A DNA stretch of 43,301 bases, taken from Clostridiales bacterium. GTDB taxonomy: Bacteria > Bacillota > Clostridia > Christensenellales > SZUA-584. Below are positions 30,734 to 35,244 of the stretch, piece by piece. The notes under the pieces are model-generated. The model worked only from the letters and a program-made list of their open reading frames with translations, did not search any database and had not been told where the DNA came from. Within the stretch, counting starts at the first letter, position 1, and the number at the start of each line of letters is the position of its first letter. The position numbers were made by a program, and so were the translations under genes. The stretch covers positions 1-43,301 of the forward strand of contig JAJUJH010000005.1 in the NCBI GenBank assembly GCA_029265435.1, given 5' to 3'.

Positions 30734-30757
30734 CAAAATAAAAAGGAGGCTGCGGTG

Positions 30758-32242
30758 ATGGCGGGCTATATTTTGGCGCTGGATCAGGGAACCACCAGCT
30801 CGCGCGCGATTCTGTTCGATCGGGATCAGAATATCGTCGGAATGGCGCAAAAAGAGTTTACTCAGTATTATCCCAAACAGGGCTGGGTTGAGCATGACCC
30901 GATGGAAATCTACTCGTCCCAATACGCCGTGATGATGGAGGTCATCACAAAGAGCGGCGTCGATATCAAAGACATTGCCGCCATTGGTATCGCGAACCAG
31001 CGTGAAACGACGGTCGTTTGGGATAAGCTTACCGGAAAGCCTGTTTATAACGCCATTGTTTGGCAATGCCGGAGGACCGCCGGGCTGACCGACGCGCTGA
31101 AGGCCAAAGGGCTTGGCGATCATATCAGAGAAGCTACGGGGCTTGTGCCCGACGCCTATTTTTCGGGCACGAAAATCAAATGGATACTCGATCATGTGGA
31201 CGGTGTGCGCAAGCGCGCCGAAAAGGGCGAGGTATTGTTCGGAACGGTAGACAGCTGGCTTGTATGGAAGCTCACAAACGGCGAACGGCATGTGACGGAT
31301 TATACCAACGCGTCACGGACGATGATCTATAATATCAAAACGCTTGACTGGGACGAAACCCTGCTGCGTGAGATGGATATTCCGCGGGGGATGCTGCCCG
31401 AAGTGAGAAGCTGCAGCGAGATTTACGGCTATGCCGCCATACAGGGCGTTCGGGTGCCGATCGCGGGCATAGCGGGCGATCAGCAGGCCGCGCTGTTCGG
31501 GCAGGCTTGCTTTAAAAGCGGAGAAGCCAAAAACACTTACGGTACGGGGTGCTTCCTGCTCATGAATACGGGGGAAACGCCGGTGACCAGCCGGAACGGA
31601 CTGCTTACTACGATCGCCGCCGGCTATCACGGCAAGGTGCAGTACGCGCTGGAAGGAAGCGTGTTTGCGGGCGGCGCTGTGATACAATGGCTGCGCGACG
31701 AGATGCGGTTGATTGAGGAAAGCCGCGACGCGGAATATTATGCGCAAAAGGTTTCCGATACGGGCGGGGTATATCTTGTGCCCGCCTTTACCGGCCTTGG
31801 CGCGCCGTATTGGGACATGTACGCACGCGGCTGCCTGATCGGCATCACACGGGGCACGCGGCGTGAGCATATCATCCGCGCGGCGCAGGAGTCCATCGCG
31901 TACCAAAGCCTTGAGCTTGTGGAAGCAATGGAAAAAGACAGCGGCATTACGCTCGGTTCGCTCAATGCGGACGGCGGTGCGAGCCGCGACGGGTTTCTGA
32001 TGCAGTTCCAGGCGGATATTCTCAACAAGCCCGTCAGACGTCCGAAGATACGGGAGACGACCGCTCTGGGCGCCGCTTTTCTTGCGGGGCTCGCGGTCGG
32101 GATTTGGAAGGATACCGAAGCGATCAAAGAGAGCCGGGAGGACGATATCTGCTTTGTTCCGAATATGGACGGCGAAAGGCGTGAAAAGCTTATCGGCGGA
32201 TGGCGCAAAGCGGTGGAGCGAAGCCTTGGCTGGGAGCGCTGA
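30758..32242 (+). CDS. glpK: Glycerol kinase
   Basis: [10 protein letters not shown]; NQRETT; WQCRRT; [10 protein letters not shown]; KNTYGTGCF; [11 protein letters not shown]. Confidence 0.96.
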
Positions 32243-32279
32243 ATCAAACTTTTCATATGATATGGCAAAAGAAGATGAT

Positions 32280-32429
32280 CAGCTTGTCGAAAAACCTTCG
32301 GTTTTACGACAGTTTTCCGGTTTTGCTTGTTCCTCGCAAGCTCGAAACGGCGCAAAACCGCAAGGTGCGGCTGCGCGGGCAAAGCCCGTCTTGCCCACAT
32401 ATTATAATTTTAGCTTTATTGACAGTCTG
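32280..32429 (+). mobile_element. MITE-like element, copy A (150 bp)
   Basis: Ends CAGCTTGTCGAAAAA ... TTTATTGACAGTCTG (11/15 inverted match); flanked by ATGAT direct repeat; homologous to the reverse complement of 33947-34079. Confidence 0.75.
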
Positions 32430-32435
32430 ATGATG

Positions 32436-32467
32436 TTGATTTGCCGCCGCGTTATTGCTAGTATAAT
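32436..32467 (+). promoter_or_regulatory. Putative sigma-A promoter of xdhC
   Basis: TTGATT-N17-TAGTAT with TGn, overlapping a TATAAT at 32462. Confidence 0.5.
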
Positions 32468-32496
32468 CGAAAAAGGTTTGAAAGGTCATAACACTC

Positions 32497-33555
32497 ATGA
32501 AAAACCATATCTACACGGACATTATGAATGCGCTCCGCGCCGGCAAATGCGCGGTGCTTCAGCAGAGGCTGCCTCAGGATGAAGGCGATACCGCCTCTAT
32601 CATCAAGAATTTGATGGATCCGGAAGACGCCCATGCCATAAGCGCCATTCAGATCGGTGCGCCTGTGCTGAATACCGAGAACGGCGCCGCAACCGTTTTG
32701 GAGCCGTTTTTTCCAGAACAGCGGCTTATTGTGCTGGGCGGCGGGCACGTCGCGCTGCCCGTTGTGGATTTTGCGTCAAAAACGGGGTTTTCCGTGGTGG
32801 TTGCCGATGACAGGCCGAGCTTTGCGAACCCGATGCGTTTTCCGTCTGCCGACGGCGTGATATGCGAGAGCTTTGAAAAGGTATTCGACAGGCTCAATGT
32901 CACATCGTCCGACTATGTGGTCATCATCACGCGCGGCCACCGGTACGACATGCTTTGCCTTGAGAAGGTGCTTCAGGGCCCGGAGCCGTTTTATGTGGGC
33001 ATGATCGGTTCACGATCGCGCGTCGCCGCGGTCAAAAACGCGCTGATTGAAATGGGGTATGATGCGGCGCGCGTCGAACGCACGCATACTCCCATCGGGC
33101 TCAAGATCGGCGCGCTTACTCCCGCGGAGATCGCCATATCCATATTGGCGGAGATGATTTCCTGCAAGCGCCTCGGCGGAGGAAGCGGCGCCACGAACCG
33201 TTCGGATATGGACATGAACGTGCTGCGCGTGCTGGCCGAGGAAACGGGAGAGCCAAAGGCCGTCGTCACCGTGTTGTCCGCCAGGGGCTCCGTACCGCGC
33301 GGTCCGGGCGCTAAAATGCTCGTGTATCCCGACCGCCGCATTATCGGCAGCATCGGCGGCGGCTGCTGCGAATCCGCTGTCATCGACATCGCGTGCCGGA
33401 TGATCGGCACGGGCCGGTACCGCCTGCACACCGTCAATCTGACCGCAGATATCACCGAGGAGGAAGGCATGGCCTGCGGCGGCATGCTGCAGGTGCTGAT
33501 CGAGGATTTCCAGCCGGAATTTTCGGCTGCTCAGGAAATCACGAACAAAGGATGA
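32497..33555 (+). CDS. XdhC/CoxI-family molybdoenzyme maturation factor
   Basis: Rossmann-like GGGHVA...DDRPSF...TRGH..D...GMIGSR...PIGLKIGA.TPAEIA; C-terminal GSVPRGPGAKM...GSIGGGC...CGG. Confidence 0.9.
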   Translation: MKNHIYTDIMNALRAGKCAVLQQRLPQDEGDTASIIKNLMDPEDAHAISAIQIGAPVLNTENGAATVLEPFFPEQRLIVLGGGHVALPVVDFASKTGFSVVVADDRPSFANPMRFPSADGVICESFEKVFDRLNVTSSDYVVIITRGHRYDMLCLEKVLQGPEPFYVGMIGSRSRVAAVKNALIEMGYDAARVERTHTPIGLKIGALTPAEIAISILAEMISCKRLGGGSGATNRSDMDMNVLRVLAEETGEPKAVVTVLSARGSVPRGPGAKMLVYPDRRIIGSIGGGCCESAVIDIACRMIGTGRYRLHTVNLTADITEEEGMACGGMLQVLIEDFQPEFSAAQEITNKG

Positions 33556-33560
33556 TCACG

Positions 33561-33920
33561 ATGGATAAAGCAGAAAGGGAAAAAATCCGGCACATTATTG
33601 ACAAAAGAAATGCCGCGCATACTGAACTTAGCCAAAAATCGGATGTATATCGCGCGTTTCTCGGCATGGAAGAAGCCGCTTTTTTAGACGGAGCTCTGAC
33701 AAAGCTTGAAAAGGAGCTGATTGCCGTGGGCATATCCGTCGTAATCAACTGTGAATCGTGTATGGAGTGGCATATTCATCAGGCGGTTTTAAACGGCGCA
33801 AGCGAAAAGCAGGTGATGGAAGCCATCGGCGTGGGTATCGAAATGGGCGGCGGCCCCGCGACGGTATCCGCAAGGTTTGCAATGAGTGCGCTTGAATATC
33901 ATCTGGATACCGGCATATAA
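33561..33920 (+). CDS. Carboxymuconolactone decarboxylase / AhpD-family protein
   Basis: GALTKLEKELIAVGISVVINCESCMEWHI; MGGGP; alternative start at 33552 overlaps the xdhC stop. Confidence 0.88.
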   Translation: MDKAEREKIRHIIDKRNAAHTELSQKSDVYRAFLGMEEAAFLDGALTKLEKELIAVGISVVINCESCMEWHIHQAVLNGASEKQVMEAIGVGIEMGGGPATVSARFAMSALEYHLDTGI

Positions 33921-33946
33921 ACAAAAGCGGCCCGTTTCGGCCGCCT

Positions 33947-34079
33947 CAGACTGTCAATAAATCTAGAAAAATCATTTGTGGGAAAAAGGGCTTTGCCCGC
34001 GCCGCCCGCACCTTGCGGTTTTGCGCCGTATTGAGAGGTACAAGCAAAGCCGGAAAACCGAAGGTCTTTCGACAAGCTG
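33947..34079 (-). mobile_element. MITE-like element, copy B (133 bp), inverted relative to copy A
   Basis: Ends CAGACTGTCAATAAA ... TTTCGACAAGCTG; flanked by 22-bp direct repeats at 33925-33946 and 34080-34101 (20/22 identical). Confidence 0.8.
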
Positions 34080-34113
34080 AAGCGGCCCGTTCCGGCTGCC
34101 TATGTACCCGCAT

Positions 34114-34329
34114 CTAACAGCAATTGCTGATGCAGAATGTCACGGCTTCAATGTCTCTCAAGCGGCAGATAGTTACGCATCCGCGGCAGACGATCTTGCA
34201 GGCGTCGTCGGAAACCCCCGTTAAAAGTCCCTTGAAGCTGCCTCCCGATGTGGTCACGCACACACATTCGTCGATATTATCCTCAAGCTCGCTTAAAATG
34301 CTGTCGCGATGGTCGCAATCATATGACAT
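34114..34329 (-). CDS. Small Cys-rich protein (71 aa, 10 Cys), possible spore coat/exosporium protein
   Basis: AAAGGGAG RBS; V.VTT.GGSFKGLLTGV.DD pattern suggests an Sm-like/DUF2642-like fold. Confidence 0.65.
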   Translation of the reverse strand: MSYDCDHRDSILSELEDNIDECVCVTTSGGSFKGLLTGVSDDACKIVCRGCVTICRLRDIEAVTFCISNCC

Positions 34330-34409
34330 GGCTTTCGCTCCCTTTCATTCGATGTTAGCTGATACCATATTATTCAACACACCGTTTTTTGTGACAGCCT
34401 TTCTTCAAG

Positions 34410-35108
34410 CTAAAAATCGACGAGGCCGTATTCGTTAAGCCGCTTGTCGCAAATCTTTCGCTGCGGGAAGTACGATTCGAGCGCCTTGTAAAACGCGCTT
34501 GAATGGTTTGGCGAATCCAAATGGCACAATTCATGCATAATCACATAGTCGATCAGTTCCGTTTCACAGCGAAGCAGATGCACCGACAGGCTCAGATTAA
34601 GCCGCTTCGTGTTGATGCTGCCCCATCGCGTGAGCATGTTTCTCACCGAAAGGCTGATCGCCGCGTTTGAATGGAAAACCTTTTGCATGGCGGCAAGCCG
34701 GGTTAAGAACACGTCCTTTGCCGTGCGCGTCATAAACCGCGCAAACGCCGTTTTGACGTTTGTTTCGGGCGGAACGCAGAGCACCAGCTCGCCGCCGTCT
34801 ATGCCTGCCCATGCTTTTTTGTCGCGCACCACGCGCAATGTCATCCGCCGCCCCAGTATCATCAGGCTGTCGCCGCTGGCATACGAAGCCGGATAACAGC
34901 GGCTGCGTTTCTGCTCCACCGCATGAAGCCGTTCTTTGATGAACCGCTCGTTCTGCGCCACAAACGCGATGATGCGGTTTTCCGGAAGATGATGGGGAGC
35001 CGATACGCAGACGCGCTTATCGCCCGACACGCGAATGCGCATATTCTTCATATTCTTCCGACGGATCGTGAACTCGATCCCGCTCAGCTCGGTCTCTTTT
35101 TTCTTCAT
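34410..35108 (-). CDS. M48-family (YgjP/DUF45) zinc metallohydrolase
   Basis: RWGS; DYVIMHELCH (HExxH); NHS..FY; probable start MKKKE at 35108. Confidence 0.88.
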   Translation of the reverse strand: MKKKETELSGIEFTIRRKNMKNMRIRVSGDKRVCVSAPHHLPENRIIAFVAQNERFIKERLHAVEQKRSRCYPASYASGDSLMILGRRMTLRVVRDKKAWAGIDGGELVLCVPPETNVKTAFARFMTRTAKDVFLTRLAAMQKVFHSNAAISLSVRNMLTRWGSINTKRLNLSLSVHLLRCETELIDYVIMHELCHLDSPNHSSAFYKALESYFPQRKICDKRLNEYGLVDF

Positions 35109-35244
35109 AGCCCTATCATACACAAAAACGGCCGTTTTGTCCTGTGCAGACGCAAAATGAACCGAACGATTTTATGCAATTTTTTCAGGCTATGTTTTTT
35201 TGATGGGCGCAAATAATAAGCTTACTTCACTGCGAGGAACAACG

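Follow-up and report, generated by a model that had tools for sequence, protein, structure and literature searches.

A 151-bp miniature element bracketed by duplicated hairpins in a Clostridiales genome, with ends resembling those of the IS1182 family

Most transposases generate target duplications of a fixed length. Target choice guided by DNA structure is poorly documented: there is IS1630, in 1999, and there are hints for the IS1182 family, whose direct repeats range from 0 to 60 bp according to ISfinder. Work by Calcutt in 1999 is said to have found that IS1630, an IS30-family element of Mycoplasma fermentans, targets and duplicates inverted repeats. The accessible portions of later papers give its target duplications as 19–26 bp (PMC2853133) and, for M. 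fermentans M64, report duplications of 16–26 bp at four of seven IS1630 copies (PMC3317919). Within the IS1182 family, the available text on IS1272, and on TnSha1, describes targeting of hairpins, in many cases terminators, without any consensus of primary sequence, and repeated hits on one and the same hairpin (PMC4923244; PMC5678879); some IS1182 members are said to target palindromes (both papers, citing Siguier 2015). In the IS1272/TnSha1 cases given there, the stem-loop is partly or wholly deleted and no target duplication is made (PMC4923244; PMC5678879), and attack at the 5′ feet of a stem-loop is predicted to duplicate the whole of it, by a hypothetical “pathway b” (PMC5678879).

The element described here resembles IS1272 and TnSha1 in its hairpin targets, and in that elements sharing its ends carry a transposase of the IS1182 family (NF033551). 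It differs in that the whole stem-loop is duplicated, and in being non-autonomous and 151 bp long. With IS1630 it shares long, inverted-repeat target duplications that vary in length; IS1630, however, is autonomous, 1.2–1.4 kb in length, encodes a transposase of another family, and belongs to a different phylum. Small size, lack of coding sequence, inverted-repeat ends, intergenic location, and multiple copies are common to this element and the bacterial MITEs. The Correia/NEMIS, RUP, SPRITE, MITEAba12, and QMITE families make short target duplications of fixed length. As characterized in the portions available of a 2024 review, such elements are small and non-coding, have terminal inverted repeats, lie between genes in many copies, and need an IS transposase in trans (PMC10969869); IS1182 is mentioned nowhere in the review, and those portions describe no hairpin-sized duplications. 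No report of a MITE with duplications of this kind was found in the open-access literature. In this genome the hairpins have unrelated sequences and are duplicated in full, unlike the targets of insertion sequences directed to REP elements. Such insertion sequences recognize one specific, repeated REP sequence, and their duplications are short or absent. IS1397/ISKpn1 and the IS110-family ISPpu9, for example, insert into extragenic palindromes, in the accessible text of two papers (PMC1525189, PMC12288879).

The window analyzed is a 43,301-nt stretch of a Clostridiales genome (assembly GCA_029265435.1, contig JAJUJH010000005.1). A sequence-only reading of it had picked out two inverted, non-coding repeats around an xdhC–cmd gene pair and taken them to be homologous along their whole length, which is borne out by alignment (Table 1). 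Copies A and B align end to end in MAFFT, copy B being short of 11 and 6 nt, and blastn gives 78% identity across 151 columns. A repeat search of the window divides the match into inverted pairs of 90 nt (32341–32430/33946–34035, 77%), 30 nt (32279–32308/34051–34080, 93%), and 28 nt (32312–32339/34031–34058, 89%). The identical 24-mer remarked on in the same reading occurs exactly twice in the window, at 32347–32370 (+) and 34006–34029 (−), and in none of 100 shuffled controls. The terminal inverted repeats are imperfect, again as described: in copy A, 12 of 15 positions match between 32280–32294 and the reverse complement of 32415–32429. Neither copy contains a credible ORF, also as claimed; the family consensus is open in four of its six frames, in stretches of only ~50 codons, and includes no transposase gene. 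The gene names originally given to the neighbors (glpK, xdhC, and cmd) agree with their Pfam matches to FGGY, XdhC, and CMD. A promoter scan found no strong promoter arising from the outward-facing TTGACA of copy A.

Table 1. Features of the two element copies and their surroundings, in window coordinates.
Feature	Position	Strand	Basis
Copy A, miniature element, 150 bp, young	32280–32429	+	Alignment, blastn, end comparison
Copy A left inverted repeat	32280–32296	+	
Copy A right inverted repeat	32415–32429	+	
ATGAT, left 5-bp target duplication of copy A; site without hairpin	32275–32279		
ATGAT, right 5-bp target duplication of copy A; site without hairpin	32430–32434		
Copy B, 133 bp, older, two internal deletions, 78% identical to copy A	33947–34079	−	
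Duplicated 22-nt terminator hairpin, adjoining copy B right end	33925–33946	−	Direct repeat, fold
Duplicated hairpin, adjoining copy B left end, directly after stop of 71-codon ORF	34080–34101	−	
FGGY-family kinase gene (glpK-like), upstream of copy A	30755–32242	+	Pfam FGGY_N, FGGY_C
xdhC, starting 67 bp 3′ of copy A	32497–33555	+	Pfam XdhC_C, XdhC_CoxI
CMD-family gene, convergent with minus-strand genes whose terminator took copy B	33561–33920	+	Pfam CMD
71-codon ORF, no Pfam match, 3′ end abutting duplicated terminator	34114–34329	−	
YgjP-like gene, upstream of 71-codon ORF	34410–35123	−	

A 22-nt direct repeat encloses copy B; its two hairpin-forming copies are identical at 20 of 22 positions. 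A terminator-like site was identified on the minus strand at 33947–33924. The repeat copy at 33925–33946, with a predicted fold of −7.3 kcal/mol, keeps its T-tail; reading along the minus strand, the other copy is followed by the element in place of a T-tail.

Duplications of this type are the rule for the family in this genome. Target duplications were scored for 72 full copies with flanks, two of a total of 74 being left out because they lie at contig edges. An ungapped flanking direct repeat of at least 15 nt, comprising one whole hairpin, was found at 61 of the 72, with a median length of 24 nt (range 17–35, n = 61); control windows shifted by 300–1000 bp had such a repeat in 1 of 413 cases. 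Four further copies of the 72 have gapped hairpin repeats. A hairpin duplication is missing in seven of the 72, and duplications of 4–6 nt at hairpin-free sites are found in three of them all told, copy A included. In 38 of the 61 ungapped cases the repeat is centered precisely on the loop of the hairpin, and in 52 to within 1 nt; the repeat ends with no more than one unpaired nucleotide in 58 on the 5′ side and 55 on the 3′ side. The duplicated sequence differs from locus to locus, and mismatches between the two repeat copies grow with divergence of the element from its consensus (Spearman 0.36, p = 0.004, n = 61). These junctions show the preferred target to be a stem-loop, whatever its sequence or size, and in most cases a Rho-independent terminator; they show as well that insertion there leaves one complete copy of the stem-loop on either side of the element. 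Duplication of an entire hairpin, absent from the sequence-only reading, is the element's most unusual property.

An extragenic, hairpin-rich, high-copy sequence might at first glance be taken for a palindromic repeat of the REP or REPIN type, spread by recombination or by a tyrosine (RAYT) transposase. The element, however, has terminal inverted repeats of the DDE type and target duplications of locus-specific sequence; REPIN/RAYT elements are not known to make such duplications, and a relationship to them is scarcely credible.

Filled and empty versions of the same site could be compared at two positions. Downstream of one conserved gene, the congeners G021 and G022 have a terminator of a single hairpin; in the congener G003 and in this genome the element stands there with the hairpin doubled. 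A second site is filled here, and has a single hairpin and no element in G017, G021, and G003. These comparisons of orthologous loci show the element to be mobile; combined with the inverted repeats and the target duplications, they uphold its initial classification as a non-autonomous MITE. Next to the xdhC orthologs of five congeners (64–68% identical), no glpK or cmd homolog and no element was found within ~1.5 kb on either side. A query for public sequencing runs over 31800–34500 gave none.

The high copy number anticipated from the window is found in the genome as a whole, where blastn gives 128 HSPs, or 117 loci after merging, making up 0.61% of 2.59 Mb. HSPs of at least 130 bp (n = 93) have a median identity of 94% to the 151-bp family consensus, and ten of them are at least 98% identical to it, which suggests recent activity. 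Within the genome, copy A shares as much as 97% identity with other members of the family, and the end sequences are conserved over the 72 full copies. It is thus supported by sequence comparison that both window repeats belong to a single non-autonomous, high-copy MITE family. Of 22 other species of the genus, 15 have DNA matches to the element; none of 18 genomes searched outside it does.

Could the element instead be a functional RNA or cis-regulatory module (a 3′-UTR element, a small RNA, or a terminator accessory) kept by selection, its mobility being incidental or past? Copy A does fold well as single-strand DNA, into three internal hairpins (−28.8 kcal/mol, z = −3.4), and in a nine-copy subfamily the first of these has an altered loop and a restored base pair. 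The terminator T-tract is on the right-end side of the element in 35 copies vs. 14 (binomial p = 0.004, by a crude classification), which would place most copies in the transcript of the gene upstream of them. The fold is gone, however, from older copies like copy B (z = −1.45), whose structure has therefore decayed; both orientations of the element occur; and transposition alone accounts for the duplications at the flanks, for filled and empty sites alike, and for the ends shared with insertion sequences. A match to Rfam had been named beforehand as a possible refutation of the MITE classification; the element matches no Rfam family, the two hits of an E-value scan over 31500–35000 (E = 0.23–0.3) being far below gathering level and off the element. 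A selected RNA function as the primary explanation is accordingly regarded as improbable.

The element ends point instead to the IS1182 family, as had been suggested in the sequence-only reading. Among 80 related loci in other genomes, the 38 with enough flank were examined. Both IS ends were located in 27 of these, the ISs being ~1.5 kb long; in the other 11 the end pattern missed them. Hairpin duplications of 20–38 nt flank 19 of the 27 full-length ISs, 17 of them perfect, and are missing from eight, in three of which the right end is doubtful. In the complete genome of Chakrabartyella piscis, all eight IS copies analyzed have hairpin duplications. The left 17-mer of the element matches the ends of these related ISs at 12–15 of 17 positions and the right 17-mer at 12–16. 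Similarity is confined to the terminal 15–17 nt, and the end matches by themselves have E = 0.013–0.2. Because the likeness stops there, descent of the element by simple internal deletion from any of the ISs seen was rejected.

Closer to home, ends much like those of the element are found on a 1516-bp IS in the congener G006 and on contig-end IS pieces in G021, with a 15-nt right tip that matches the element at 14 of 15 positions. The G006 transposase gene is frameshifted, its halves scoring 205 and 135 bits (NF033551 positions 3–307 and 315–488), and the element itself is matched only once, and in part, in this genome with the matching IS. Another congener, G018, has two intact IS1182 transposases and no element; the 11–12-nt A-rich, non-folding repeats picked up near these by an automatic search are probably due to chance. 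No PF13751 matches were found in the draft genomes of the element-bearing congeners G001, G003, G005, G007, G008, G009, and G011. The genomes of the congeners just named are all drafts, in which repeats often go unassembled.

A transposase gene between matching ends, the search for which had been recommended at the outset, was found in congeners and in many Clostridia, but not in this assembly, where no element combines both ends with a transposase gene and the matching IS type is represented by a 45-bp relic only. End pairs 1–5 kb apart in the genome turned out to be neighboring small copies or a chance in-gene match (C102), and solo ends to be truncated copies of the element. Since the assembly has no autonomous partner with these ends, mobilization in trans by an IS1182-family transposase in this genome is inferred.

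A single intact IS1182-family transposase is nevertheless present in the assembly, in a resident single-copy element on contig C95 (“C95” below). It is 486 aa long, scores 447 bits against NF033551 (cut-off 270), and has the Pfam domains DUF772 and DDE_Tnp_1_6; the C95 IS is itself flanked by a whole-hairpin duplication, of 20 nt. With the best-matching IS type reduced to a relic and ten element copies close enough to the consensus to suggest recent activity, cross-mobilization by C95 could conceivably take the place of mobilization by the best-matching type. The C95 ends, however, match the element at only 8–12 of 17 positions (11 and 11 for its left end, 12 and 8 for its right) vs. 12–16 for the other IS clade, the transposases of C95 and of the matching type are only 37% identical, and the genome has neither a further copy of C95, nor a derivative of it, nor C95-type ends elsewhere. 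C95 as the mobilizer is therefore considered rather unlikely.

Much less can be said for a transposase of the IS30 family, even with IS1630 as the classic case of long, variable inverted-repeat duplications: the best NF033563 match in a search of the genome scores 41 bits (cut-off 80) and contains a stop, and the element ends match those of IS1182-family elements that have hairpin duplications themselves. Mobilization by an IS1630-type enzyme is very improbable.

The favored reading, to which a probability of about 0.8 is assigned, is that the element is a ~151-bp MITE moved in trans by an IS1182-family DDE transposase that targets and duplicates stem-loops. The transposase would recognize the 15–17-nt terminal inverted repeats, which begin with CAG and contain TGTC and an A-run. 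The two 3′ ends of the transposon would then attack both strands of the target at the 5′ feet of the stem-loop, probably in an extruded cruciform, although a single-stranded DNA hairpin would fit equally well. The stagger between the cuts would equal the length of the palindrome, 17–35 bp in this genome, and gap repair would duplicate the entire hairpin. Acting on ordinary duplex DNA, this enzyme would produce a stagger of 4–6 bp, as seen for copy A. With a hairpin left on either side, the upstream gene would retain a terminator-like structure; the element, lodged between two hairpins, would do little harm, which would explain its rise to 117 copies. The mobilizer here may have been an IS of the congener type, either unassembled or lost, or else the resident C95 element.

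Since duplication length here follows local DNA structure, the element points to structure-guided choice of targets. Taken jointly, the 65 natural junctions in this genome and the 19 from full-length relatives define a rule: cuts at the feet of the stem, symmetric about the loop. For annotation, the family means that more than 100 intergenic regions in this genome, and many in the genus, have doubled terminators with a 150-bp insert. Element loci break assemblies (12 of the 117 touch a contig end), and could pass for small RNA genes or regulatory repeats. Intact relatives are carried by cultured hosts with complete genomes, C. piscis among them, which makes the mechanism testable at the bench.

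A more general reading, held tentatively and at somewhat less than even odds, is that a clade of IS1182-family DDE transposases, with this miniature derivative, reads DNA shape and not sequence: an extruded cruciform or hairpin would be captured and the transposon ends joined at its two 5′ feet, with the hairpin setting a stagger of 17–38 bp. If so, these insertions would supply evidence from nature for a route to stem-loop duplication that was only hypothesized for IS1272, and the transposase might be redirected merely by supplying a palindrome. Each insertion would make two terminators from one and place the element in a transcriptionally insulated pocket, and most copies would be co-transcribed as a 3′-UTR extension of the upstream gene.

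[quoted passage not shown] The sequence-only reading had already proposed a non-autonomous MITE family mobilized in trans, and the interpretation is supported; mobilization in trans and the identity of the acting enzyme are inferred, as discussed below. The two copies are indeed homologous from end to end in inverted orientation, by repeat search, alignment, and blastn (78% identity). The repeat search gives collinear inverted segments of 90 nt (77%), 30 nt (93%), and 28 nt (89%), and most of the difference between the aligned copies is due to an 11-nt and a 6-nt deletion in copy B. The 24-mer they were said to share occurs exactly twice in the window, with no matches in shuffled sequences; the terminal inverted repeats bounding both copies are imperfect, as noted earlier, those of copy A pairing at 12 of 15 positions; and the neighboring genes, as named before, encode an FGGY kinase, XdhC, and a CMD-family protein. 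The possibility that the element is a known structured RNA was also raised, but it matches no Rfam family. Elsewhere in the window, CcsR1 gives a weak match at chance level (18.7 bits, E = 0.3; gathering score 65.3).

Coordinates of the element copies, their flanking repeats, and related loci (G000, the genome assembly containing the window; G021, a congener)
Feature	Location	Position	Strand
Copy A	window	32280-32429	+
ATGAT duplication at copy A, left	window	32275-32279	
ATGAT duplication at copy A, right	window	32430-32434	
Copy B	window	33947-34079	-
Hairpin flanking copy B, left	window	33925-33946	
Hairpin flanking copy B, right	window	34080-34101	
Terminator-like hairpin at copy B	window	33947-33924	-
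Weak CcsR1 match	window	34856-34937	+
Conserved block with six element loci (L088)	G000:C189	1-15296	
Contig with resident IS (L048)	G000:C95	1-2129	
Resident IS	G000:C95	about 192-1755	
IS behind tRNA gene (L060)	G021:C49	~1380-1445	
Relic of second IS type	G000:C200	11038-11095	
Truncated element right end	G000:C157	2654-2701	

The G000 assembly (2.59 Mb in 224 contigs, 52% G+C) yields 128 blastn HSPs with copy A as query, merging to 117 loci, or 0.61% of the genome; the high copy number expected from the two window copies is thus borne out. The repeat breaks the assembly, as twelve of these loci reach the end of a contig. Seventy-two full copies with flanks give a consensus of 151 nt, to which HSPs of 130 bp or longer (n = 93) show a median identity of 94% (range 76–99%). 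Ten are at least 98% identical, suggesting a fairly recent burst. Beyond G000, element DNA is matched in 15 of 22 other species of the genus, and in none of 18 genomes outside it (two of the same family, sixteen of the same order). Nine G000 copies (contigs C114, C142, C54, C36, C57, C185, C178, C82, and C212) form a subfamily with an altered loop in the first internal hairpin, which one added base pair makes a perfect palindrome; these also yield a short reverse-strand HSP. The congener G003 has “half elements” of ~69 bp (L042–L045, on C93, C120, C72, and C115) that begin near consensus position 83 and have a normal right end; one of them (L045) has a 26-nt hairpin duplication, though its left end has no inverted repeat.

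When 40-nt flanks are compared, nearly every copy proves to lie between directly repeated hairpins, whose sequence is different at each locus. Two of 74 full copies were left out because they touch contig edges. Of the remaining 72, 61 have an ungapped repeat of at least 15 nt (median 24, range 17–35; 18 perfect), compared to one of 413 control windows shifted by 300–1000 bp at the same loci; in another four a hairpin repeat of this kind contains a one-base gap, three (including copy A, with a 5-nt duplication) are at sites without a hairpin and have 4–6-nt duplications, and in four the duplication is absent or doubtful. The hairpin loop is at the exact center of the repeat in 38 of the 61 and within 1 nt of it in 52, and there is at most one unpaired nucleotide at the 5′ end in 58 and at the 3′ end in 55. 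What is duplicated is therefore the stem-loop, regardless of how large it is (stems of 4–14 bp, loops of 3–9 nt). Divergence of the element from consensus correlates with mismatches between repeat copies (Spearman 0.36, p = 0.004), as it should if both arose with the insertion. Copy B is a window example: its 22-nt flanking hairpins are identical at 20 positions, and on the minus strand one retains its T-tail and scores as terminator-like. Copy B therefore lies within the terminator of a minus-strand 71-codon ORF and YgjP-like genes, convergent with cmd.

Filled and empty sites were compared not at the window loci but on contig C189, where gene order is conserved across the genus and nearly every intergenic region of a 15-kb block contains one of six element loci. 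Around the xdhC orthologues of five congeners, no homologue of glpK or cmd lies within ~1.5 kb to either side, and no public sequencing run is listed for window positions 31800-34500. Behind one conserved gene, the terminator is a single hairpin in G021 and G022 and hairpin-element-hairpin in G003 and G000. Within each filled genome the two hairpins are alike, and they differ from those of the other, so the two insertions, which share both terminator and orientation, look independent. A second site is occupied by an old copy in G000 but is a lone hairpin without the element in G017, G021, and G003.

As to a source of transposase, a PF13751 search found one intact IS1182-family gene in G000 (486 aa; 447 bits against NF033551, cut-off 270), on the 2.1-kb contig C95. 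The apparently intact, single-copy IS there is in a terminator. On both sides of it is the same 20-nt hairpin, a perfect duplication; thus an IS1182-family element in the same genome inserts as the miniature element does. Its ends match those of the element poorly (8–12 of 17 positions), and are found nowhere else in G000. A second IS type, represented by a 1516-bp copy in G006, pieces at three contig ends in element-rich G021, and a 45-bp relic in G000 (C200), fits much better: its 15-nt right tip matches that of the element at 14 positions. The IS1182-family gene of the G006 copy is frameshifted and 37% identical to that on C95. In G021 the full-length IS lies directly behind a tRNA gene, in its apparent terminator hairpin. 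The C200 relic resembles two right ends face to face, ~58 bp apart, and a truncated element right end on C157 abuts nearly the same hairpin sequence.

Relatives of this second type are widespread in Clostridia. Thirty-eight of 80 returned loci, chosen for sufficient flank, were examined, and both ends could be placed by end pattern in 27. Nineteen of these have direct repeats of 20–38 nt folding as one hairpin (17 perfect), and in one the repeat is 6 nt long; the other seven, of which three have doubtful right ends, lack a repeat; in the complete genome of Chakrabartyella piscis, all eight analyzed copies have hairpin duplications. The IS1182-like ends suggested from the sequence are apparent here: terminal 17-mers match the element's at 12–15 (left) and 12–16 (right) positions. 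Immediately internal to the left end, both have a small hairpin, and no similarity was found beyond the terminal 15–17 nt. Transposase-bearing elements with ends close to these, as anticipated, exist in congeners and other Clostridia, but neither a long element with the miniature element's ends nor a partner IS is in the G000 assembly. Among draft genomes, seven congeners holding element DNA have no IS1182-type match, and one with two intact IS1182 elements has no miniature element. Given draft assemblies, and a shortest G000 contig (1.5 kb) about the size of the IS, such absences are weak evidence.

Among known systems, IS1272/TnSha1, of the IS1182 family, target hairpins and terminators without sequence preference, reportedly with deletion of the stem-loop and no duplication left (PMC4923244, PMC5678879), whereas the miniature element duplicates it whole. 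IS1630 is described as generating 19–26-bp duplications of inverted repeats (PMC2853133, PMC3317919), and so resembles the element in this respect, but its transposase is of the IS30 family, none of which scores over cut-off in G000. The text of a 2024 review of prokaryotic MITEs makes no mention of IS1182, and the passages of it that were consulted contain nothing on hairpin-sized duplications (PMC10969869), and no MITE with hairpin-duplicating behavior was found in the open-access literature.

The element is mobile and prefers stem-loops of any sequence, with a whole stem-loop ending up on both sides; full-length IS1182-family elements with near-identical ends likewise duplicate whole stem-loops. 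Mobilization in trans by such an enzyme would fit this pattern. [quoted passage not shown] A plain duplex target would instead give a 4–6 bp stagger. Either a cruciform (supercoiled DNA) or a single-stranded hairpin could be the target; sequence does not distinguish the two. By a crude classification, the terminator T-tract is on the right-end side of 35 copies and the left of 14, with 12 ambiguous (binomial p = 0.004); the count for the ISs, 7 to 3, settles nothing. With this bias toward the right end, transcription from the upstream gene would pass through most copies of the miniature element and terminate at the second hairpin.
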